Source of the DNA: an uncultured Bdellovibrionales bacterium
GTDB lineage: Bacteria; Bdellovibrionota_C; UBA2361; J135
DNA length: 46,474 nucleotides
Assembly (NCBI GenBank): GCA_964523015.1
Contig: CAZFXN010000006.1
Span: 21,211 to 67,684, forward strand
Direction: 5' to 3'
The notes under the pieces are model-generated. The model was not told where the DNA came from. It saw only the letters and a list, made by a program, of their open reading frames with translations, and made no database searches. Positions 4,307 through 40,160 of this stretch are shown here, piece by piece (positions within the stretch are counted from its first letter, which is position 1; every line of letters starts with the position of its first letter). Position numbers and translations under genes: made by a program.

Positions 4307-5413
4307 CTAAAGGTTTTCAGAAATTTTCGAAGACTCAACAAAAAGTGTTTGAGTTGGATAAGCGAACCCTATTTCCATCTTTGTAAATTGAGCCAAAATC
4401 TCTAAATTGATATTCTGCTGAGCCTTCATGTAGATATTATAATCCTGACTTTTAACAAAATAAACTACTTCGAAATTTAGAGCTGACGCACCAAATTCTT
4501 TAAAATGACATCTATCAAATCGTACGTTCTCCTGATTGGATATTATTTGTTCTACAATTTTAGAGATCTCTTTTAATTTATCATGGGAAGTTTGGTAGGT
4601 AACACCAAATATAAAAAGTATCCTTCTCTCATTCATCCGCTTATAGTTTCGTATGCGACTATTTAAAAGATCAGAATTTGAAAAGATTAATTGATCTCCA
4701 TCAATACTTCTAAGTCTTGTTGTTTTAAGTCCTATTTTCTCAACAGTTCCTCTTAAATCCCCTACTACTATGAAGTCTCCAACAGCAAATGGACGATCTA
4801 GTACAATTGATAAAGAGCTAAACAGATCACCAAGGATGTTCTGTACTGCAAGCGCAATTGCGATACCACCAATACCAAGGCCAGTAACCAAAGCAGTGAT
4901 GTTAACCCCAATATTATCTAGAAATAACAAAAGGACGGCACCCCAAATAATTGCCTTGCTAGCGAATCGAAGAAGCTCTAGTGCTGAGATGACTGAAGGA
5001 TCTCCACCATGCTTTCTACGAACATAGTTCTCAATAAATTGAGTTACCGAAACGGAAGCCCAGATCCCTCCCTGAAACAATAATCCGAAGGTAAAAGCAA
5101 GTCTTAAGACTCGCTCGACTTCACTAGGCACAGAGATAGCCAAGGAGGCCACGTAGATAGATACGATAAAAAGTAAAAGTGAACTTGTTGTTTCAAGTAT
5201 TGAAAAGAAAAGTGCGCCGATATCCTCAGAGATTAGTTTGCTGTACTCAGCAATTTTTCGACCGATAAGTTTCTTAGCTACTATTAGGGTAGAGTAAACG
5301 AAAACAAAAAATACTAGGGCAACTATCCAACTAGATAGAGAATTGCCAAGCAAGTTATACTTTAAGAGTGGTAAAATTTTAGAAAGAGAATCAGAAGCAT
5401 TATTTAAAGTCAT
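4307..5413 (-). CDS. mscS: Small-conductance mechanosensitive channel (MscS family).
   Basis: 368 aa. Three N-terminal TM helices are present. The MscS pore and beta-domain signature is LVTGLGIGGIAIALAVQNILGDLFSSLSIVLDRPFAVGDFI.VGDLRGTVEKIGLKTTRLRSIDGDQLIFSNSDL. Confidence 0.85.
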   Translation of the reverse strand: MTLNNASDSLSKILPLLKYNLLGNSLSSWIVALVFFVFVYSTLIVAKKLIGRKIAEYSKLISEDIGALFFSILETTSSLLLFIVSIYVASLAISVPSEVERVLRLAFTFGLLFQGGIWASVSVTQFIENYVRRKHGGDPSVISALELLRFASKAIIWGAVLLLFLDNIGVNITALVTGLGIGGIAIALAVQNILGDLFSSLSIVLDRPFAVGDFIVVGDLRGTVEKIGLKTTRLRSIDGDQLIFSNSDLLNSRIRNYKRMNERRILFIFGVTYQTSHDKLKEISKIVEQIISNQENVRFDRCHFKEFGASALNFEVVYFVKSQDYNIYMKAQQNINLEILAQFTKMEIGFAYPTQTLFVESSKISENL

Positions 5414-5808
5414 GCTCTTTGATACTACTGATGCTGATACTTTGGCAAACCGTAAGAGATCCGCCCAAATTCACCGCTATAACTACTCCCACAGGCGAAA
5501 GGAAAAGAGAGATGGCTCTGGCACGAAGACAGTAGAGTGCCCTCGCCCTCTCTCTTTTCCTTTCTTGCTTCTTTTCTCTTTGTTTGACTTCCAGCGCTGG
5601 AAGTGAAGAAATTAGTGATAGTCCATTTCTTAATTTTCAACAAAATCCAAAATTAGATAGTGTTTCCTTTGTCTCACGCTAATATGGCGGTGGATATTTT
5701 GATTGATTAAAGAGCAGCTCGTTGACCTAAATTAAAAAAATTGAAAGCTATAAAGATTGGCGAAAGGAAAGGTAGAAAGAAACGAGGGTACAGATGAGAA
5801 AGAGTGGC

Positions 5809-5843
5809 GGCGGTCGAAGGTCGCTTGCGCTACTTCGACCGCC
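5809..5843 (-). terminator. GC-rich hairpin downstream of the island-A ORF; putative intrinsic terminator.
   Basis: ggcggtcgaag / cttcgaccgcc forms an 11-bp stem with a 13-nt loop. On the minus strand it is followed by a moderately U-rich tract (CACUCUUUCUCAUCUG). Confidence 0.35.
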
Positions 5844-5856
5844 CCACATCCTCCAA

Positions 5857-6165
5857 TCAGGCCTGCCCGAGTGCCGTGATCAGATCCTTGACGTTGCTGG
5901 AGAACATCATCAGATGATCCTCACGCCACCACGCACCACGATCGTACATCCGCGCCGTCAGTCGCCCCCTGAAGGCGTTGCAGTCCTTGGGGTAGACGTA
6001 GATGAGTCCCGTGTGAGGCCCTTGGGAAGTCGGGCTCGCTACCACGACCACGACATCCACCTCTTCACAGAGGTGAGATCTCGGATCCTCACCATGAGAA
6101 CTCTCGACCTGCCTGATCCTTTCAGGCCAAGCCAACTGAGTCATCGTACCAACCGTTCCGTTCAT
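5857..6165 (-). CDS. Hypothetical protein encoded inside GC-rich island A; possibly foreign in origin.
   Basis: 102 aa. Codon third positions are strongly G/C-biased (tac gtc tac ccc aag gac tgc aac gcc ttc ...), unlike the host genes. The SD GGGAGG lies 4 nt before the ATG. A GC-rich hairpin (5809..5843) sits 14 nt past the stop. The overlapping plus-strand ORF 5794..6222 is Arg/Pro-rich and looks like the wrong frame. Confidence 0.35.
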   Translation of the reverse strand: MNGTVGTMTQLAWPERIRQVESSHGEDPRSHLCEEVDVVVVVASPTSQGPHTGLIYVYPKDCNAFRGRLTARMYDRGAWWREDHLMMFSSNVKDLITALGQA

Positions 6166-6510
6166 ACCGCCTCCCGTAAGCTTTCGTTGTTGGGGACTGA
6201 AGTGTTTGACGAAAGCTCTTAGATGGTAAGCTTGTCTCCATCTAAGAGCCTTCGCCGACTAAAACCGTAAAGTATTGAGCTGCTCTCTTCAAAAAGCCGA
6301 TACTAATCCGACTGCTTTTTAAAGAGAGCAAATAAGAACTTCTACTATTATGGAGTTTGTAAAAGAGACTGCTTGAAGTACGATTCTAGCTGAAACAAAA
6401 ATCTTGTCATAGTGGATATTAAGCAAATTTGATAAGTATCATAACCTATTTACAACGTAACTATCTAAAAACAAACTACTATTTCCCGATAAAAACTTTG
6501 ATATTTAGCT

Positions 6511-8307
6511 TTACATAATTCCTTTTGCTTCATCAGGCCACAGAGATGGGGCATAATTCATGGCTTCTGTCTCACTTACAAAAGATTCATTTACAAGATC
6601 TTTAGTAATACCTTTTATAGCTCGTAACATATACTGGATCTTTCTTTTATATTCGCCATAATTCTTAGCGACCTGACGTGAATCCAATCCAATTCTAAGA
6701 ACATGCATTTCTTGACCTTCTATAGTATTAGCTATAATAGCTGGAATTGTTATTGGAAAATTATTCCATTCAGGGTCTCCTCCATTGCCTTCCCTCTTAG
6801 CCCCTAATCTATTTTTAAACTCTCCTCCCATTCCTTGGATAGGCTTTCTTAAAGTGAATGCAATAATACTATCTTCGTATTGTGCATTTCTGTTTTCAAT
6901 TACGGTAATTTCATCAATTGATCTTAAAGTATCGACGACTAGTTTCCTTAATTCCTTAATTTTCTCTCGAATTTCTATATAATCTGGCAGATCATTCATC
7001 GCAAAAACTAATGAGGCTAATTCAGGGGTATTTGCAACACCTGAAGCTACTTGGTTATATGCTGCAAGTCGATCTTTATCCCGAGTAACAAATCCATATT
7101 TTCGGGATCTGTAACATAAGTTAGAATCTTTGAAATCAAGTTGGTTAGAATGAAAACGTTCCTTATTAAATAAAACCCCACCAGCTCCCATAAGTGAGCT
7201 TACCATTTTTGCTCCAGTAAAAAACACTGCATCCGCATAATCCCAGATACTTTCTGATTTTCTACCAGTTGAGCATGTTAGATACTTCTGTGATGGCAAC
7301 CGACCGAGTCCCTGTGCATCATCTAAAACAATTACGGGGGCATAATCAGTATCTCTATACTTCTCTCGTATTGCAGATGCTATATCAACAAATTGCAACC
7401 TTCTCCCAGTACGGGTCACTGTATTAATAATAATAATTGAAGGCTTTGCATCCTCAATATTGGCAAGCATTAAGTCAAGAATTTCTTGATTTGAAGCAAA
7501 GTGCTCTGCCTCTGCTGAAATATGATCTACCTTAAAAGGCCCTATATTTTTTGCAGGTGATTCAATTTTTATATTACTCCATATATCTACATTCGGATTG
7601 AAATTTGATTTTAAAAAGCGTGGATTCTCTCCCTTTAAAGCATCGGGCATAACCCGGCCAGTATTATGAAACGCAAGAATACGACTTCCCTCTTTAAGAT
7701 CAAGACAGCCTAAGAATTGGAAAAATGCGGTAGTGGCATTGTCATCGAAAATAGCTTCTGTTAAATCAGGATTAAGATCTCCATAATGAGCACACATCTT
7801 ATGAAAGGCACTAAAGGAAGTGCTTGAGGCAACACTTTCTAATGTCACATGATCTCCTCGTTTCTTAGCCTCCATTAATATTTCTGCGACTATGCAAGCA
7901 GCACGTGCACCATCAACATTTGGGACACCAAATGTAGGATGATTGAAACTAAGAGTTGAAATCGCAGCAAATGGGACATAACGAACTCCCTTAGCTATCG
8001 CTTCTTCTCGATCTCTAATTAACTCACCTAGGACACCACCATCCCAGGTCAAACGACTTAGATCATATTCATTAAAATGACCTGTTATAATTGCGGAAGA
8101 ATCATGCAAGCATTTTTTCACACCTTCGATATGATGCGGATGAATATGGCCTACATACCAGGCAGTTTCTTTATCTGGAGTAATTTCTGAAAATAAATCT
8201 GCCTTAAGTGACTCATGCTGGGCGAAAGGAAACAACTTTTGAACCATCAAGTTGGCCCTAGGTAAGGACGGGTTATCACCCGAATTATCGATTGGCAAAC
8301 TAGTCAT
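6511..8307 (-). CDS. Class-V aminotransferase-fold PLP-dependent enzyme (cysteine desulfurase / epimerase-like) with an N-terminal extension of about 230 aa and unknown function.
   Basis: 598 aa. The central region carries the class-V signatures VIVLDDAQGLGRLP and ...FFTGAKMVSSLMGAGGVLF (the SGHK-like PLP-lysine motif). It lies 72 bp downstream of the giant cgs gene on the same strand. Confidence 0.6.
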   Translation of the reverse strand: MTSLPIDNSGDNPSLPRANLMVQKLFPFAQHESLKADLFSEITPDKETAWYVGHIHPHHIEGVKKCLHDSSAIITGHFNEYDLSRLTWDGGVLGELIRDREEAIAKGVRYVPFAAISTLSFNHPTFGVPNVDGARAACIVAEILMEAKKRGDHVTLESVASSTSFSAFHKMCAHYGDLNPDLTEAIFDDNATTAFFQFLGCLDLKEGSRILAFHNTGRVMPDALKGENPRFLKSNFNPNVDIWSNIKIESPAKNIGPFKVDHISAEAEHFASNQEILDLMLANIEDAKPSIIIINTVTRTGRRLQFVDIASAIREKYRDTDYAPVIVLDDAQGLGRLPSQKYLTCSTGRKSESIWDYADAVFFTGAKMVSSLMGAGGVLFNKERFHSNQLDFKDSNLCYRSRKYGFVTRDKDRLAAYNQVASGVANTPELASLVFAMNDLPDYIEIREKIKELRKLVVDTLRSIDEITVIENRNAQYEDSIIAFTLRKPIQGMGGEFKNRLGAKREGNGGDPEWNNFPITIPAIIANTIEGQEMHVLRIGLDSRQVAKNYGEYKRKIQYMLRAIKGITKDLVNESFVSETEAMNYAPSLWPDEAKGIM

Positions 8308-8379: not shown

Positions 8380-11300
8380 CTATAATTTACCCATAAATAC
8401 TTTGATATTTACCTCTTTTATCCCTTCAAAGCGGGCGAAAGATACCTCAGGAGTATCAGATTTTTGACCTTCAATCTCAATATATTTAACCCCTTTTTCT
8501 ACCTGTTCAGGGTTAATAACAGTAACCAGATATGTCACTTCAGCATGTCTAAAAGTGAAATCAAATTTATCCCATTTTTTTGGAATACAAGGGTTCACTG
8601 TAAAGTGATCGGCTTTTACCTTTAGTCCTACTATGTGCTCAATTCCAGCTACATAAAGCCAACCACATGATCCAGTATACCAACTCCAACCAGCTCGTCC
8701 CTCATGAGGTGGTTGAGAGTAGACATCCCCACACAGGACATACGGCTCACCTTTGTATTTATCTACACCTTTTGGATCACTAGTATGAGTTATCGGATTA
8801 AGCATGCTCCAAAGCTCCATAGCCTTATCTCCCTTACCGAGAAGTGCTGTTGCAATGACAACCCAACAAGCTGCATGAGTATACTGCCCACCATTTTCGC
8901 GAATACCTGGAAGATACCCTTTTATGTATCCTGGTTCTTGATCACTTGTATCAAAGGGAGGCGTTAGTAACTTAATAATTCTATTTTCATCATCGACAAG
9001 TCGATCAAAGACCGATTCCATAGCTTGTGCAGAGCGCGCCGGATCCCCTGCTCCAGACATTAAACTCCAACTTTGAGCAATCGAATCGATCTGACATTCG
9101 CTATTCTGTGCACTTCCTATTGGGGAACCATTATCAAAGTAGGCTCTTCGATACCATTCTCCATCCCAGCCGTGCTCTTCGATCGCGGATAACAGTTTAG
9201 TGGCATAATCAGAAAATTTCTGGGAACTTGCCTGATCGTTTCTTAATTCAGAGATCTGCGAGAACTTTCTTAAGTTGTCATACAAAAACCAACCCAACCA
9301 AACACTCTCGCCCTGTCCACCGGAACCAACCTCATTCATTCCATCGTTCCAATCACCAGCACCGATCAATGGTAATCCGTGTGATCCAAAAGTAAGTCCG
9401 TAATTAATGGCCCTAATACAGTGATTATAAATACTCTCTTTCTGATTAGAAGTATGCGGCACGATATATGATTCCATTTGATGCTTCTCTAGCGGAGCCG
9501 CATCTATAAAACCAACCTCTTCATCAAGAATCGAAGAATCTCCAGTCACTGAGATATACTTTTCAACAACATACGGTAACCAAAGATAATCATCAGAGAT
9601 CCTGGTTCTTACACCTCGACCAGTTGGTGGATGCCACCAATGCTGCACATCTCCCTCTAAAAACTGTCGAGCTGCAGCTCTTAAGATCTGTGCCCTAGTT
9701 AATGTTGGATCTAGGTAAAGTAAACTTAAGGTATCTTGCAATTGATCTCTAAAACCGTAAGCTCCACCACTCTGATATAGTCCGGACCGTCCCCAGATTC
9801 GACATGACAAGCACTGATAAATTAACCATCCATTCATCAAAATATCAAAGCTTCGATCCGGAGTATTAATAGTAATTCTTGAGGTAATTGAGCTCCAATA
9901 CTTATTAACTTGATCCAGTTCTTGAGCGTGAGCTACTGGAGATCTATATTTAACGGTTAGTTCACGGGCTTCTTCAAAATGGTAAGCTTCTCCCATAAAA
10001 AACGAGAGCTCTTTTTTCTGTCCAGGATTAAGTGTTAACGCAACTTTCAGCACAGCACACGATTCAAATCCGGCACCAGTTTTCTTTGACAACTGAACAA
10101 GCTTAGAAAACGATCCGATTCCAGCGATCGCTTTTATTGGGGAGACAGCTTGGGCAAGCGCGATTGGAGACTCAAATGAACCGTTCCGTCCGATAAACTC
10201 TAATCGACTAGTAGTATATGAATTAATTTCCGCACTAGATCCTAGATAAACTATCCGACCTGCAAATTCATTATTGTAGTAATTTATGGCAGTTAATATT
10301 TTAGCCCGCTGATCGAACCCTGTGTTAATAAAGGGAGCTGTTTGGTGTCTATTGATACCTAGCACCCAATCAACATATAGATAGAGCTCCAGTCGCTTTG
10401 GCTTGCTATCGTTGTTTTGTAAATTTAAATTCCAAAATTTTACTCGATCTTCAATTGAGCCAGAGACACAAAGGTGACTCTGGAGATTCTGATGCTCTGT
10501 CTTAAAAATAGAAGATCCAAAGTTATGTTCAACCTCAAACTCCTGATCCATAGAAGATGGCAATGGAGTTGCTGACCAATAATCACCAGTTAATCCATCA
10601 CGGATATAGATCGCTTCAGTTGGCGAATCAGATACTGGATCATTTGACCATCCACTAAGTCGATTCTCACGACTATTTTCAGACCAGGTAAAGCCTCCAC
10701 CAGTTTCACTAACTAAGAATCCAAAATTAGGATTAGCAATGACATTTATCCATGGCAGAGGAGTTAGTCGCGGGGTAAGACCTTGCTTCGAGAGCTTTAT
10801 GTAATATGACTTTCCTTTAGATGTGAATCCTCCATATCCATTAAAAAACTCACTCACTACAGCTGGAGCGGAGATAGGTCTTTCTTTAGTTATGCGAGCA
10901 GGATTATCAAAACGTTGATCCTTAAAGATATTATCTAGAAACCCTTTTTTATCATCTGAACTAAATTCATTATCCTCAAACACTGAGAGTTGTCGTGCCA
11001 AGGAACCTCTCTCCGCTATAAAAACTATACGTGCTGTGGCCATTAAAAGCGTTCTCTCTTCAGAAGAGAGTTGATGCATGGTTCGAACAAAAATCCCGCC
11101 CCTTTTATCAAGATGTCCTGCAGCATATCCCGATCTTACTACCTGATCTAATGCATCTTGAAAGTTCTGAATGTATCCTTCTGTATATTCGTTAAGAATA
11201 ATTAGATCAAAATCGATACGACGATGTTTTAGATATTGATGAGCTAAAATTAGCTCACTGACCTGCTTTAATTGTGTCTCGTCATTAACTTTGAGGACGA

Positions 11301-18344: not shown

Positions 18345-18511
18345 GTGTCGAACTATTAGTGGTTTCTAGTAATTTTTACTCTCTCATTGTCAACTACTTA
18401 GTTAAACAAATCAGTTAGTTACATACCTTAAATGAGATTAAAAGCTCACCTACTCCTCCATCTACTCCTCCCTCTACTCCTCCCATAACCGAAGAAAAAA
18501 AACTCGAGATC

Positions 18512-18742
18512 GTGCCATACAAGCAAGGGAATCTTCAGCGATCCCTTGGCAACGCGATCCTCATCCTCGAACTGAGGCTCGACATCTCAAATTCGATGGA
18601 CAGTCTCCTGCCTGCGCTCGTTCTTCACAGAAATGAGCTCCTGGCTGAACTCAGGCAGAACTGGGAAGCAGCAGGTGGCAAGAGAGGAAACATCTTCGTT
18701 AAGGAGGTGGTGCATGCTTCTAGGCGACTAACACCCGCTTAG
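18512..18742 (+). CDS. Hypothetical small protein in GC-rich island B.
   Basis: 76 aa, starting at GTG. It has a C-ending codon bias (atc ctc gac aac ttc). The frame stays open upstream through a (P/S)T-rich tract. Coding status is uncertain. Confidence 0.2.
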   Translation: MPYKQGNLQRSLGNAILILELRLDISNSMDSLLPALVLHRNELLAELRQNWEAAGGKRGNIFVKEVVHASRRLTPA

Positions 18743-18951
18743 GAGCTACGCCGTGCCCTACTTTTCTCACTGAAACCTACACCAACTTTTTTTACTTGGT
18801 TACATTAAAAGGAATTTTTCGGTGATGAGCTTCAGTGATGGACTACACAGCTCAGTACGATTGTATCTGTCTTAAATGCTGGATTGAAATATAATGATCT
18901 TGTGTATTAAATGAGGATCCAGCTGAAACAAAAAGTGAGTAAACTTAATAC

Positions 18952-29451: not shown

Positions 29452-29901
29452 TCAACCTTTCTTACCTGCCGAAACTTTAACGAAGGTAATCCTTAAATTG
29501 TGAAGAATATCCTGTATTAGAGTTGATTCTCTCTGATCAAGATTCCCTTTTGTTTTAGACTCTAACATAGTCAAAATATCGATAGTTTGCTTGGCTGCCA
29601 ATATATCCTTTGGAATAGAGACCCCAGCTGGTGGAGCAATCTCTCCAAGTTGCATAAGTGCCTGTGTAGCAAAGGACATAGCAAAACTACTGAAATCTAT
29701 CGCTGGTAGATCTGAGGAACTATCATTTATATTGGCATCGGTCATTTTAGATGAATCCTTTGATCTCTCTGAGTCCTCACCTGTTGACCTCTCCTTACCT
29801 TCAGAATCAAAACGTCGTCGATCAACAATCTTTAATTCCTCTTTCTCTAGTTCCTTTTTCTCTAGTTCCTTTTTCTCCAATTCCTCTTTCTCACTGTCCA
29901 T
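29452..29901 (-). CDS. DUF1844-like protein with an acidic N-terminal (EKKEL)n repeat region.
   Basis: 149 aa. The C-terminal conserved block IDFSSFAMSFATQALMQLGE...LAAKQTIDILTMLESKTKGNLDQRE resembles DUF1844. The N-terminus is encoded by tandem codon repeats (29770-29900). It lies 8 bp upstream of htrA on the same strand. Confidence 0.5.
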   Translation of the reverse strand: MDSEKEELEKKELEKKELEKEELKIVDRRRFDSEGKERSTGEDSERSKDSSKMTDANINDSSSDLPAIDFSSFAMSFATQALMQLGEIAPPAGVSIPKDILAAKQTIDILTMLESKTKGNLDQRESTLIQDILHNLRITFVKVSAGKKG

Positions 29902-33438: not shown

Positions 33439-34139
33439 GCACCTTTCCAAAGTAATGACAAATTTTATGATAGATAGATGGATGTAGGAAGAATTCGCCA
33501 AACTAGGACCCTCCAACGAGATCCGGCGGAAGTGGGAGTATACAGTATTTCTGCTCACTGAGCAAACCAGGGGCAGTTATTAACTTATTGGTAAAATTGA
33601 CCAAATTTTGCTCGCTTTACTGGGCTATATAGCAGTTGTCATAAAGATTGAGACACTAATGTGAGGGGTCATTAATACAGTTTGTTGCAAAAGTTTCTTG
33701 AAAAGCCTACCGGCTTTACATTTTTACTTATGACAACTGCTATTTATCTTAATGTTGAATCTGACGCTACGCTAGCTAGCGTCAGCAATGTTAGGCTCTT
33801 ATTGCACTTCGTGCTAAAGAGCCTCCCCACCCAAGCTTCGCTTGGGGGCCCCTTAAAGGGGCTACTATAGTAATTGTCTCAAACATTTTGACAATTACTA
33901 TATATTAGGGAATTGCGTCCATAACAGATTACGATAGACTCTAATATATCGTTCTATCTTAGTTCTTTCTTCGTTCTTTCTTTTCTCAATCAGCGTAGAT
34001 TTTTTACCTCTCATGCATGCTTGGTGGATAGCATTTTTTTAAAGATCCTAGCTCATCTCTAGCACCTCCTTACCTCCAGGCCTGCATGGGTGGTCCCATG
34101 AAGGTTCTTTTTTAGGCACACAACCCTCAGGAGGGGTAC

Positions 34140-34700
34140 ATGACGATCCCGTCAAGTCAGCGATTGGGCTTTGTGCTTCAACGCTACACGACAACACCGA
34201 TCTCAGAGTATGGGGAGATCCCCGTCCAGGGTCGAGCGTTCAACGAGACTGCTGTTCTTCGCACTGAGATGCGGCTTCGCCGTGCCGATCCCAATCTGGT
34301 CTTCTCCGGAAACTTCTGGTTCGACTTCCGTCAAAGTGACGGGATGCCGAAGTCTGTGAGGCGATTCTTCGAATCGTACCTCGCGGTCACAGGGACGACT
34401 GATCTCTCTCAACTCGAAGTTCTGAATCCGGCCCGGTTCACACAAGAACTTCACGGATTCGGTGGTGCGATGACGTACTTCGGAGATCGGAGCAACGAGG
34501 AGATGATTCAAACCTTCTTCCTCTCTGCTTCAATCCTCCATCCGCGCGGACGCAAGGAAGGCTCACCCAAACTGGGTAGCCTACTGCAAGTCTTCCTCGA
34601 TACCCTCGATGAGGACTTTCCTGGCAACACGTTGATGAGCGGGTTCGAGAAATTCCTGCAGCCTCGTCGACGCAAACAGCGGATTCACGCCAGCTTCTGA
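34140..34700 (+). CDS. Hypothetical protein encoded in GC-rich island C; likely recently acquired.
   Basis: 186 aa and a coherent sequence. The SD AGGAGG lies 5 nt before the ATG. Codon third positions are strongly C/G-ending (ttc atc ctc gac aac), very different from neighbouring genes. A 12-bp inverted repeat with a T-rich tail follows the stop. I recognise no family. Confidence 0.5.
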   Translation: MTIPSSQRLGFVLQRYTTTPISEYGEIPVQGRAFNETAVLRTEMRLRRADPNLVFSGNFWFDFRQSDGMPKSVRRFFESYLAVTGTTDLSQLEVLNPARFTQELHGFGGAMTYFGDRSNEEMIQTFFLSASILHPRGRKEGSPKLGSLLQVFLDTLDEDFPGNTLMSGFEKFLQPRRRKQRIHASF

Positions 34701-34916
34701 GTCCCCCGATCCCCTCTGTCGCGGCTAAGATCAATCCTATTTGGGAATGCTCTTATGCTGCGACAGAGGGGGACTTCTCTCTTCTTCTTTTTTCTCCGCT
34801 CTTTTATCCTCTCTTTTCTCCTGTTTTTAACAAATGTTTCTAGGATCACCTATGTAGAAATTCTCCACAATTTAACCTATAACAATTCGAAACACATTTA
34901 TGTTAAATAGAGCGAT

Positions 34917-39162: not shown

Positions 39163-39491
39163 AAATGGAAAACTTTGTTAATATATTTATCTAAAGTTGG
39201 TGGCGGATTTTTATAATAGCTACACAGATAAAAATTAAAAAAGTTTTGAAATTCCAAAAGATGACTACTTTTCTCTTGACAGGATTTCTAGAGCATCCTC
39301 TTAAGCTAAGATCAAATCTAAATAAAGACCTATTAAACGCTTTACGATTCTCTATAAAAATTTTTTTTAAAATACCATCGCGATTTTTGGTAAAGATACG
39401 AGATCTCACCTCCTTGCCCCTCTAAGAGGCCCTCAAAAACCTATGATATGCTTATTATATAATGCGAAATATTTAAATCTTAGGAAGCGGT

Positions 39492-40160
39492 ATGGATATT
39501 AAAAATTTATCAGATAACGAATTAACCTCTCGAATAGATTTACTTAGAAGTAAGTAACGAGAGATCACTCTTAAATTTCTTATTCATCTTGGGGAATTTG
39601 ATAAGAGAAGATTATACTTAGAATTAGGGTTCTCGTCCCTTTTTGATTACTGTACTAGGAAACTCGGGTATTCTGATGGGAGTGCATTTAGAAGGTTAGA
39701 GAGTGCTAGATGCCTTAGAGAGAATCCTGAATTATCTAACTATATTCTATCTGGAAAAGTCTCTCTACCTAAAGAGGTTTATAATGAGCTTCAAATCCTT
39801 AGGTCTAAGCTATCAAATAAACTAGGATCAAATATCTCTATTGAGGCAGTCTTTCCTGAGTTAATTAAAAGTTACGATAAAAAAGGTAGGGCAACGATAG
39901 TAAGAAAATCAAACGAGAATAGTCGATATATTCCCGTCTCAATAAAGAGAGAGGTCTCCGATCGTGATGGATGTCAATGCAGCTATGTTTCCCCAAATGG
40001 AGTGCGTTGTACCCAGAATCATTATCTTAACTATGATCATGTAAGGCTGTTTGCATTAGGTGGGAAAACAAATAGTGATAATCTTAGACTTTTATGTCGA
40101 GCCCATAATCAGATGTTTGCTAGAATGACTTTTGGTGAGTTAGATTTTGCTCGGAAATAA
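39492..40160 (+). pseudogene. HNH endonuclease gene interrupted by a single in-frame TAA at 39555-39557.
   Basis: One continuous frame reads MDIKNLSDNELTSRIDLLRSK*REITLKFLIHLGEFDKRRLYLELGFSSLFDYCTRKLGYSDGSAFRRLESARCLRENPEL...REVSDRDGCQCSYVSPNGVRCTQNHYLNYDHVRLFALGGKTNSDNLRLLCRAHNQ. The second part carries the His-Asn-His nuclease motif. This is the widespread family of small HNH endonucleases. The SD AGGAAG lies before the ATG. There is no in-frame start codon after the stop until near the end of the frame. Confidence 0.7.

Follow-up and report, generated by a model that had tools for sequence, protein, structure and literature searches.

The spacer studied here is 1.1 kb long and lies between mscS on one side and, on the other, a gene for a 598-aa protein that adjoins cgs. 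It contains a GC-rich segment of about 470 bp (5795-6262), designated islet A. The GC content of islet A was 56-61% (56.4% for 5790-6262), against 39% for the window, i.e. the whole 46-kb stretch of DNA that was analysed (mean 0.393, sd 0.051 over 150-nt windows). In 200-nt windows, the GC content was 0.49-0.61 within 5701-6300 and 0.30-0.42 on either side. The segment 5738-6213 was the largest GC excursion of the whole window. A previous sequence-only reading had described a GC-rich block of roughly 450 bp in an AT-rich window and had taken it to be foreign. The GC profile bore out the block, and its foreign composition was evident from the third codon positions (GC3 of 0.69, compared with 0.25-0.30 for the neighbouring genes). 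The features of the spacer are collected in Table 1.

Contigs of JGI samples L001, L004 and L005 covered both junctions of islet A at 99.9-100% identity. As three independent assemblies agree on them, the junctions are genuine, and an assembly artefact is ruled out. The metagenomes that yielded matching contigs were the runs SRR6448205 and SRR6448219 and the JGI projects 3300020596, 3300020180 and 3300015360. The sole SNP in the population, at 5855, fell outside the 102-aa ORF and was uninformative on constraint. The Pfam families listed for 20 other ORFs of the window, 25 out of 35 that matched, were all housekeeping. The chromosomal region around islet A is a housekeeping one, in an AT-rich bacterium of the Bdellovibrionota_C type.

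Table 1. Positions of features in and around islet A and of the other islets in the window
Feature	Position	Strand	Remarks
Hairpin H4	5497-5564		Perfect 16 bp (5497-5512/5549-5564); imperfect 28-nt arms, 86%; outside islet
Pyrimidine tract	5537-5586	plus	3' arm of H4 and tail; from tract scan
Palindrome	5587-5604		Perfect, 18 bp, core CTTCCAGCGCTGGAAG; possible operator upstream of mscS
C/T-rich tract on ORF strand	5759-5788	minus	Shortly past H3, left edge of islet; plus-strand purine at least 90% over 30 nt
142-aa ORF	5794-6222	plus	Longest ORF; annotated gene in JGI record L001; judged a probable antisense artefact
Stem-loop H3	5807-5845	minus	GC-rich; perfect 11 bp (5809-5819/5833-5843), 13 bp with 1 mismatch; 11-13 nt past stop
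102-aa orphan ORF	5857-6165	minus	ATG start; preferred coding reading, from ORF list and codon periodicity
Shine-Dalgarno (SD) GGGAGG	6170-6175	minus	CCTCCC on plus strand; 4 nt ahead of ATG
Stem-loop H2	6210-6254	minus	17 bp at 94% (6210-6226/6238-6254); right edge of GC block, 44 nt upstream of ATG
Stem-loop H1	6270-6341	minus	AT-rich; 17-bp core at 94% (6281-6297/6314-6330), 28-nt arms at 79%; outside GC block
Candidate sigma-70-like promoter	6383-6410	minus	ATGACA-16-TAGAAT, 10/12, best match; upstream of H1
Islet B	18490-18790		GC-rich orphan islet
Islet C	34040-34810		186-aa orphan ORF, hairpin right after stop, C/T tract

Two ORFs on opposite strands were considered as the gene of islet A. 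The 142-aa plus-strand ORF has the existing gene call in its favour, and NCBI, JGI and Logan sources all list its product. It is the longer of the two (the chance of an ORF of at least 142 aa at islet composition was P=0.09 in Markov simulations), and a GAGGG stands 5 nt ahead of its ATG. On the other hand, its GC1 exceeded its GC3, C was the commonest first base (C1 0.37), and the composition LLR of the frame was -15.7 bits. Its product would contain 13% Arg (R+P+S+G 38%) with a pI of 10.6, and the 13-bp GC hairpin H3 would take up codons 5-18. Neither a Pfam or NCBIfam family above noise nor a plasmid match by tblastn was obtained for it. That this ORF is the true gene is therefore very improbable. 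Its composition, pI, LLR and C1 all agreed with the earlier description of an Arg/Pro-rich antisense artefact, and an artefact is what it looks like.

In the 102-aa minus-strand ORF, the GC contents of the three codon positions were 0.58, 0.47 and 0.69. G occupied 0.36 of the first positions (purines 0.62), and A only 0.097 of the third positions (A3). The difference GC3-GC2 was 0.223 (simulated ORFs, 0.009 +/- 0.069; P=0.0007), and the depletion of A3 was similarly extreme (P=0.001). When three criteria were applied jointly, 0 of 3076 simulated ORFs passed. An SD-like motif preceded just 3% of the simulated ORFs. The spacer of 4 nt between SD and ATG is short. H2 and H3 lie just outside the minus-strand ORF, whereas in the plus-strand ORF they fall within the frame or on its stop codon. 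Of the two ORFs, the one on the minus strand is more likely to be coding.

This ORF had been put forward in the sequence-only reading as the credible gene, with G/C-ending codons and an SD of GGGAGG. Both of these particulars were found. The codon periodicity, the SD and the flanking hairpins speak for the proposal, but the length of the ORF was within chance and homologs were lacking. In 3000 first-order Markov simulations of islet composition, scored by the longest six-frame ORF, the mean was 99 aa, and ORFs of at least 102 aa occurred in 39% of the sequences (P=0.39).

A word-indexed search of 5.8 billion clusters with the 102-aa product returned only itself. A full phmmer search of 1.84 billion representatives returned itself and repeat-inflated matches to FG-GAP_2 proteins. 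Among 15 billion catalogued proteins no homolog was found; this exhaustive full-library search was devoted to the 102-aa ORF of islet A. There were zero matches to Pfam (E<=1), NCBIfam, PHROG, PADLOC or PDB sequences. Plasmid tblastn on both strands, plasmid and phage blastn, and IMG/VR gave nothing for islet A. Membership in FG-GAP_2 (PF14312) was rejected: nothing matched in Pfam at E<=1, the E-values from phmmer (1e-4 to 1e-3) were sums over 3-6 repeats, and the best pairwise segment was 30 residues long (23 bits, E=0.002 as a single comparison). An unconserved 102-aa ORF had been named beforehand as a finding that would speak against the gene, and taken literally this was the outcome. The matches were identical copies from the same population only, and the case for a gene is accordingly one of intrinsic statistics.

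The product has a pI of 6.0, and no signal peptide or membrane segment was recognized by eye. Its amino-acid composition score was neutral (-0.4 bits), and the AlphaFold single-sequence model was poor (pLDDT 48). The ORF is probably translated into a small soluble protein.

All of the hairpins named in the sequence-only reading exist. The 11-bp GC hairpin (H3) was perfect and started 13 nt past the stop instead of 14. The two strong leader hairpins placed in 6166-6300 were both found with 17-bp stems, but the outer one (H1) ran past 6300, to 6341. In a scan of the whole 46 kb, the 17-bp stems of H1 and H2 were the longest of 40. The fold of 5780-6350 on the minus strand had a z of -7.5. H2 and H3 lie within about 10 nt of the edges of the GC block, and H1 lies about 170 nt past the stop of the upstream 598-aa gene. 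H3 is followed by the C/T-rich tract at the left edge, without at least 5 T in 8, and the terminator scan gave 0 sites. In our interpretation, the ORF transcript has its putative 3' end or terminator at H3, and H2 is a likely 5'-UTR hairpin.

On the mscS side, the 16-bp stem (in H4) and the perfect palindrome of the sequence-only reading were present as well. H4 lies 84-151 nt upstream of the mscS start, with a T/C-rich tail next to it on the plus strand. These structures (5484-5605) had been counted as part of an inserted module. They stand 190-300 nt away from the GC block, and upstream features of mscS, or a plus-strand terminator-like element, would be a better reading of them. A shared boundary motif, GGCGAAAGGAAA, was considered and rejected. 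Exact copies occurred at 5494, 5759 and 8221, but 23% of the shuffles reached the mismatch-allowed count; the third copy is coding sequence.

The strong leader structures had also suggested a riboswitch or attenuator. In this case the leader, or a structured ncRNA, would be the functional element and the ORF incidental. The leader alone (6140-6376, minus) folded with a z of -4.8, with its two 17-bp stems. An alternative pairing is possible between AGCUUUCG, in the 3' arm of H2, and CGAAAGCU, immediately ahead of the SD; the SD itself is paired with UCCCC in the MFE fold. However, the leader had no Rfam match on either strand at E<=1, and its outer hairpin is AT-rich and host-like, outside the GC block. 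The stems form long, perfect hairpins of a simple kind and lack the multi-stem junctions and conserved loops typical of ligand-binding RNAs, and no U-tract follows either of them. Relatives for covariation were absent, the only copies being identical ones from the same population. The body of the ORF folded no better than shuffles (z = -1.1 on the minus strand, +0.13 on the plus strand). We regard an RNA element of this kind as very unlikely.

In a cmscan of 4800-7000 at E<=1, the Rfam matches were limited to sub-threshold plant and animal miRNA-precursor models on H4 (25 bits versus a gathering score of 75). With Rfam 15 the whole window gave 0 matches at the gathering threshold, and ARAGORN found 0 tRNA or tmRNA genes. 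A tmRNA, RNase P or other housekeeping RNA was rejected from these negative results together with the unstructured body. In size and setting, islet A resembles the GC-rich RNA-gene islands in the spacers of AT-rich genomes (RNase P RNA, tmRNA and those of archaeal ncRNA screens). It differs from them in lacking Rfam, tRNA and tmRNA matches, in a body that folds like shuffles, and in its three-base periodicity. Islet A is very probably not an RNA gene.

Besides islet A, the window carries islets B and C, which are likewise GC-rich orphans; the islets of the window are solitary, 12-16 kb apart. A further islet, M, was found in a relative (L006), the MAG MP7G1.125 of Bdellovibrionota_C/UBA2361 from Lake Vanda mats. 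Islet M has 52-57% GC and an unrelated 196-aa orphan, and lies directly 3' of the ortholog of the 598-aa gene. In genome and metagenome collections the 598-aa gene occurred in just one other lineage (L007 is the same sequence as L006), and its neighbourhood otherwise differs between the two species. An empty site for islet A was found neither among the relatives of the 598-aa gene, where synteny differs, nor among the MscS homologs, of which the nearest were about 53% identical and came from other phyla. Islets A, B, C and M had no shared sequence, no common end motif and no similar ends.

The suggestion that islet A is the end of a mobile element was not supported. Its ORFs contained no transposase or integrase domain (Pfam/NCBIfam), and neither the window nor the relative had another copy of the islet. 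Across its boundaries, direct and inverted repeats of at least 7 nt were absent, and there was neither a TIR nor a TSD. The attC core (GTTRRRY/RYYYAAC) was absent from both strands of 5450-6400. Integrases and recombinases were likewise absent from the Pfam families listed for the 20 window ORFs (25 of 35 matched), the neighbours being housekeeping genes. Islet A is genuine and odd, but it is very probably neither a riboswitch nor a recognisable mobile element.

Several known systems nevertheless share some of its properties. Like an integron gene cassette, islet A has a small ORF with a hairpin close behind, and unrelated orphan cargo is found at different sites. Integron cassettes are promoterless ORFs with an attC, whereas islet A, which has an SD of its own and a long, structured leader, shows no core sites or cassette array and no integrase among the Pfam families listed. 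Hairpins near both edges (here within about 10 nt of those of the GC block), without TIR or TSD, are also a feature of IS200/IS605-type elements and their non-autonomous derivatives. In this case the difference is the absence of a Y1 transposase or TnpB domain in the frames tested; islet A is also a single copy, with ends unlike those of islets B, C and M. The likeness to ORFans and genomic islets of horizontal transfer is that islet A is short, taxonomically restricted, homolog-free and compositionally atypical, and lies between conserved genes. ORFans are reportedly AT-richer than their own genome as a rule. The present islets, on the other hand, are 15-20 points GC-richer, occur about once per 15 kb, and are each accompanied by homopurine tracts and strong hairpins.

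The closest description is that of phage morons, which are single ORFs of deviant composition with their own promoter and terminator, placed between adjacent genes by an unknown insertion mechanism (PMC4378225). Islet A is likewise a single deviant ORF between two adjacent genes: one short ORF, unlike both neighbours in composition, with its own RBS and a 3' flanking stem-loop. Its target was a spacer between unrelated genes without a recognisable recombinase site, and different cargo occupies the equivalent site in the relative. The differences are that islet A lies in a housekeeping chromosome and not in a prophage, that its promoter and terminator are predicted ones (H3 has no U-run), and that its cargo is GC-richer than the host. 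Morons are by definition features of phage genomes. PHROG gave no match for any islet ORF, and no relatives were found in IMG/VR or GenBank phages.

We propose, with a probability of about one half, that islet A is a recently acquired, foreign, moron-type single-gene expression unit. In such a unit the 102-aa frame would be expressed as a small protein, and H3 with the C/T-rich tract behind it would end and stabilise the transcript. H2 would be a 5'-UTR hairpin, serving to protect the 5' end of the mRNA or to insulate it against read-through. H1, which is AT-rich, would be part of the host spacer and mark where the upstream cgs/598-aa transcript ends. The unit would have entered through illegitimate rather than site-specific recombination, the donors being an unsampled pool of about 55-60% GC, and the same process would have seeded other spacers, with islets B and C here and islet M in the relative. 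Prey-derived DNA in a predator, an appealing idea for a relative of Bdellovibrionota, was rejected as the source: donors living in the same well-sampled mats should turn up as homologs, yet none were found.

Islet A might instead be inert foreign GC-rich DNA, perhaps a fragment of a once-functional gene, now decaying, with hairpins that are leftover terminators of the donor. The chance length of the ORF, the lack of any homolog, the neutral composition score and the poor model of the product would all fit this. However, the codon periodicity and the A3 depletion were far outside the simulated range. This suggested that the sequence was shaped by translation in the 102-aa frame, at least until recently. 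The GGGAGG is also well placed, the frame is unbroken from the SD to the hairpin, and GC3 has not drifted to the host value. We consider decaying DNA unlikely. A cassette of an undescribed insertion system was also weighed, one in which lineage-specific recombination delivers hairpin-bounded, GC-rich single-ORF cassettes beside homopurine/homopyrimidine tracts. All four islets in the 58 kb from two species abut such a tract, and 6 of 7 tracts adjoin an islet, whereas shuffles gave 0.4 per window. Exceptional hairpin clusters accompany islets A and C, and the cargo 3' of the 598-aa gene differs in two species whose neighbourhoods otherwise differ too. Against this stand the lack of shared sequence, end motifs, TIR/TSD and attC cores among the islets, and the inconsistent orientation of the tracts relative to the ORF (on the 5' side in islets B and M, on the 3' side in islet A, on both sides in islet C). 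The absence of a recombinase among the Pfam families listed (25 of 35 matched) and the small sample of 58 kb weigh in the same direction. Such a system appears decidedly improbable.

Taken alone, the proposed expression unit is an orphan gene in an uncultured bacterium, and corrects the strand of an existing gene call. The wider interest lies in the pattern, in which several unrelated GC-rich, homolog-free ORFs stand in AT-rich spacers beside homopurine tracts and strong hairpins, with a different orphan in the corresponding place in a distant relative. Should the pattern prove genome-wide, it would offer a tractable case for the origin of ORFans and for the entry of promoter-plus-gene units without recognisable recombinases, a question shared with phage morons. 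It is a long shot that UBA2361 genomes acquire, at a density of about one per 15 kb, unrelated single-ORF cassettes that are GC-rich and stem from a pool absent from 15 billion proteins, their insertion being tied to the tracts and hairpin clusters. If true, this would mean an undescribed mechanism of gene capture or cassette insertion, or else a GC-rich parasite or mobile partner that has escaped sampling, and islet A would be one such cassette.

For the islet ORF of the relative, three strain variants differed at 7 sites in 8 kb, of which 2 were in the ORF, too few for dN/dS. The AlphaFold single-sequence model of the 186-aa product of islet C had a pLDDT of 36. The composition scores were positive for islets B, C and M.

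GC content reached 56-61% at about 5795-6262 (islet A), against 30-38% on either side and a window mean of 39.3%, so that the GC-rich block named by the sequence-only reading is real and is the strongest GC excursion of the 46-kb window. Contigs from three JGI samples spanned both junctions at 99.9-100% identity, which ruled out an assembly chimera. The composition of islet A is foreign, and its junctions are real. No empty-site variant was seen. Two Logan contigs from independent assemblies (L003 and L002) ended at 5552 and 5820, inside hairpins H4 and H3. These ends fit coverage loss at hairpins or GC-rich sequence better than they fit structural variation.

Features of islet A, of the other GC-rich islets (B and C in the window, M in a relative) and of their surroundings
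Feature	Position	Strand	Remark
A-102, 102-aa ORF	5857-6165	minus	ATG start
Overlapping ORF, 142 aa	5794-6222	plus	
SD GGGAGG	6170-6175	minus	4 nt before A-102 ATG
H1, 17-bp stem	6281-6330		extendable to 6270-6341
H2, 17-bp stem	6210-6254		
H3, perfect 11-bp stem	5807-5845		13 bp with one mismatch; starts 11-13 nt past A-102 stop
H4, hairpin with 28-nt arms	5497-5564		perfect 16 bp
Perfect 18-bp palindrome	5587-5604		core CTTCCAGCGCTGGAAG; about 175-190 nt upstream of mscS start codon
Tract by islet	5537-5586		
Tract by islet	5759-5788		
Islet B (smaller)	18490-18790		53-56% GC
Islet B ORF, 76 aa	18512-18742	plus	GTG start; no family
Tract by islet, CUCC-rich pyrimidine	18453-18484		before islet B
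Islet C	34040-34810		55-59% GC
Islet C ORF, 186 aa	34140-34700	plus	self-match only in 5.8 billion clusters
Hairpin, 15+8 bp	34700-34775		begins at islet C ORF stop codon
Tract by islet, C/T, 58 nt	34772-34829		after the 15+8-bp hairpin
Intrinsic-terminator-like hairpin with T-run	34081-34115		just upstream of islet C ORF
Tract by islet	33957-33987		
Sixth tract	29866-29895		inside a gene
Perfect inverted repeat, 16 nt	33629-33644/33728-33743		in hairpin run
Perfect 13-bp stem	33866-33902		in hairpin run
Islet M	L006 7764-8424		52-57% GC; directly 3' of ortholog of the 598-aa gene
Islet M ORF, 196-aa orphan	L006 7782-8372	minus	unrelated to A-102; opposite orientation, overlaps ortholog's stop codon

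The length of A-102 was within chance. When 3000 first-order Markov sequences with the island's composition were set between the genuine flanks, the longest ORF in any of the six frames had a mean length of 99 aa (P = 0.39 for at least 102 aa, 0.09 for at least 142 aa). The codon-position pattern of A-102 was above chance and showed frame-specific periodicity. Its GC1/2/3 was 0.58/0.47/0.69, its GC3-GC2 difference was 0.223 (P = 0.0007; simulated ORFs of 90 aa or more, 0.009 +/- 0.069), and its third-position A was 0.097 (P = 0.001 against simulated ORFs). None of 3076 simulated ORFs combined the three criteria, and only 3% had an SD-like motif upstream.

Because the minus frame and its antisense plus frame both carry this periodic signal, other evidence was needed to choose the strand. 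Codon-position bases, product composition and hairpin placement favoured the minus strand, as had been proposed. In the minus frame, GC3 > GC1 > GC2, G was the most frequent first base (0.36), and the product was balanced (pI 6.0) with a neutral composition score (-0.4 bits). In the plus frame, C was the most frequent first base (0.37), and the product (13% Arg, 38% R+P+S+G, pI 10.6) scored -15.7 bits. H2 and H3, the two GC-rich hairpins, closely flank the minus ORF; the plus ORF would carry a 13-bp GC stem in codons 5-18 and end within the other stem. Public gene calls conflict: the plus ORF is called on a 7.4-kb JGI contig (L001), and NCBI and Logan sources include its product too, and the minus ORF is called on two short JGI contigs. 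Our choice contradicts the L001 call and the 142-aa entry among NCBI-source proteins.

By sequence comparison, A-102 is an orphan. Its product matched only itself in a word-indexed search of 5.8 billion clusters. A full phmmer search of 1.84 billion representatives returned the self-match and five weak extras. These were judged spurious: all are repeat proteins (four FG-GAP_2, one repetitive without a Pfam match), whose whole-sequence scores add up 3-8 repeated matches of 20-50 residues, and the best pairwise segment with A-102 reached 23 bits. No family was found in Pfam at E<=1, and nothing in NCBIfam, PHROGs, PADLOC, PDB sequences or IMG/VR. Plasmid tblastn with both island ORFs and plasmid and phage blastn gave no match. 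A single-sequence AlphaFold model (pLDDT 48) was too poor for use.

All the elements listed by the sequence-only reading (ORFs, SD, stems and palindrome) were found, and H1 extends past 6300, the end of the region it described. The SD precedes A-102, and hairpins flank it. Across the whole window, 40 stems had 10 bp or more and no more than one mismatch; the 17-bp stems of H1 and H2 were the longest of these. The minus-strand fold of 5780-6350 gave z = -7.5 (leader alone, -4.8; trailer, -4.5), and the ORF body folded near its shuffles (z = -1.1 minus, +0.13 plus). Structure was confined to the ORF flanks. H1 is AT-rich and lies outside the GC block, about 170 nt beyond the stop codon of the 598-aa gene that lies upstream.

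We interpreted islet A, with a probability of about 0.5, as a recently acquired, moron-like single-gene unit in a chromosomal spacer, from an unsampled donor pool. The unit would comprise the hairpin-bearing leader, the SD, the orphan ORF and, on its 3' side, a stem-loop followed by a pyrimidine-rich tail. A-102 would be translated, H2 may act as a 5' stabiliser or insulator and H3 as a terminator or 3' stabiliser, and H1 probably ends the upstream transcript. Acquisition would have been through illegitimate recombination. Such a unit works like a phage moron (PMC4378225) but sits outside any phage. Integron cassettes and IS200-type elements resemble it in terminal hairpins only, and islet A lacks their defining features. 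As an ORFan islet, islet A is unusual: most ORFans have a higher AT content than the genome that carries them, and this one is much GC-richer.

That the block is inert, decaying foreign DNA is unlikely, given the frame-specific periodicity and the SD. A real gene on the plus strand, as L001 has it, is the least probable reading given its product composition and the stems within it. Hardly more probable is a regulatory or non-coding RNA. The flanks are strongly folded, and on paper AGCUUUCG in the H2 3' arm could pair alternatively with CGAAAGCU just before the SD. Nothing positive supported the suggested riboswitch or attenuator: when 4800-7000 was scanned with Rfam 15 at E<=1, the sole hits were miRNA-precursor models below threshold, on H4 (5497-5564), the whole window had 0 matches at gathering score, ARAGORN found no tRNA or tmRNA, and the leader stems are long, near-perfect hairpins without U-tails. 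The suggestion of a mobile-element end fared no better. Neither island ORF had transposase, integrase or phage domains, no second copy was present in the window or the relative's locus, no direct or inverted repeat of at least 7 nt crossed the boundaries, and islet A had no attC core site.

An undescribed cassette-insertion process linked to homopurine tracts and hairpins is also rather improbable. Similar islets do recur, in the window and in a relative. The window had six purine/pyrimidine tracts (>=90% over 30 nt), where shuffles predict 0.4. Of the six, five adjoin islets A, B and C, and the tracts do not keep one orientation with respect to the islet ORFs. The 598-aa neighbour occurs in one other lineage of the genome and metagenome collections (65% identity), MAG MP7G1.125, which has 37.5% GC, is classified as Bdellovibrionota_C; UBA2361 and comes from the microbial mats of Lake Vanda (PMC11080526). 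Gene order differs there (YidC-MnmE-594aa-SLT-GidA), and the sole >=85% tract of its 12-kb locus L006 (purine, 8389-8418) adjoins islet M. The islet products showed no resemblance to one another. Between carD/cdnL and islet C (33600-33960, +), about six consecutive strong hairpins form a 330-nt run (z = -8.5) with no Rfam match, which echoes the hairpins around islet A. The recurring pattern of islet, tract and hairpin may, as a minority possibility, reflect something new in the lineage.

An identical 14-mer, AGCTGAAACAAAAA, occurs at 6388-6401 and 18921-18934, each time in the AT-rich spacer that separates the islet (A or B) from the 3' end of the following minus-strand gene (blastn-short E = 0.1-0.2); this may be chance. 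A 12-nt exact repeat, GGCGAAAGGAAA, lies at 5494 and 5759, and a wider site family was not borne out. A dimeric regulator may bind at the 18-bp palindrome. H4 with its T/C-rich tail (5497-5586, +) is terminator-like and has no plus-strand gene upstream; a weak promoter-like site lies at 5332-5361 (+). Speculatively, these could delimit a putative RNA of about 200 nt, antisense to the start of mscS.

The neighbours of islet A are MscS and a GH94 cyclic-glucan-synthase-type protein. The nearest homologs of MscS (4307-5413) in 5.8 billion clusters were only ~53% identical, with names from unrelated phyla (Smithella, Zixibacteria, Acidiferrobacterales); mscS itself may have been transferred, or the lineage may be very poorly sampled. 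Among the matches listed, the Pfam families of 20 other window ORFs were housekeeping, including pyrimidine synthesis, RF3, IspD, sigma factor and protease. At 39490-40160, in a 1.3-kb spacer, an HNH-endonuclease-like frame is split into short ORFs. Its C-terminal 74 residues matched HNH_5 at E = 2e-5, short of the Pfam cut-off, and it is apparently a pseudogene.
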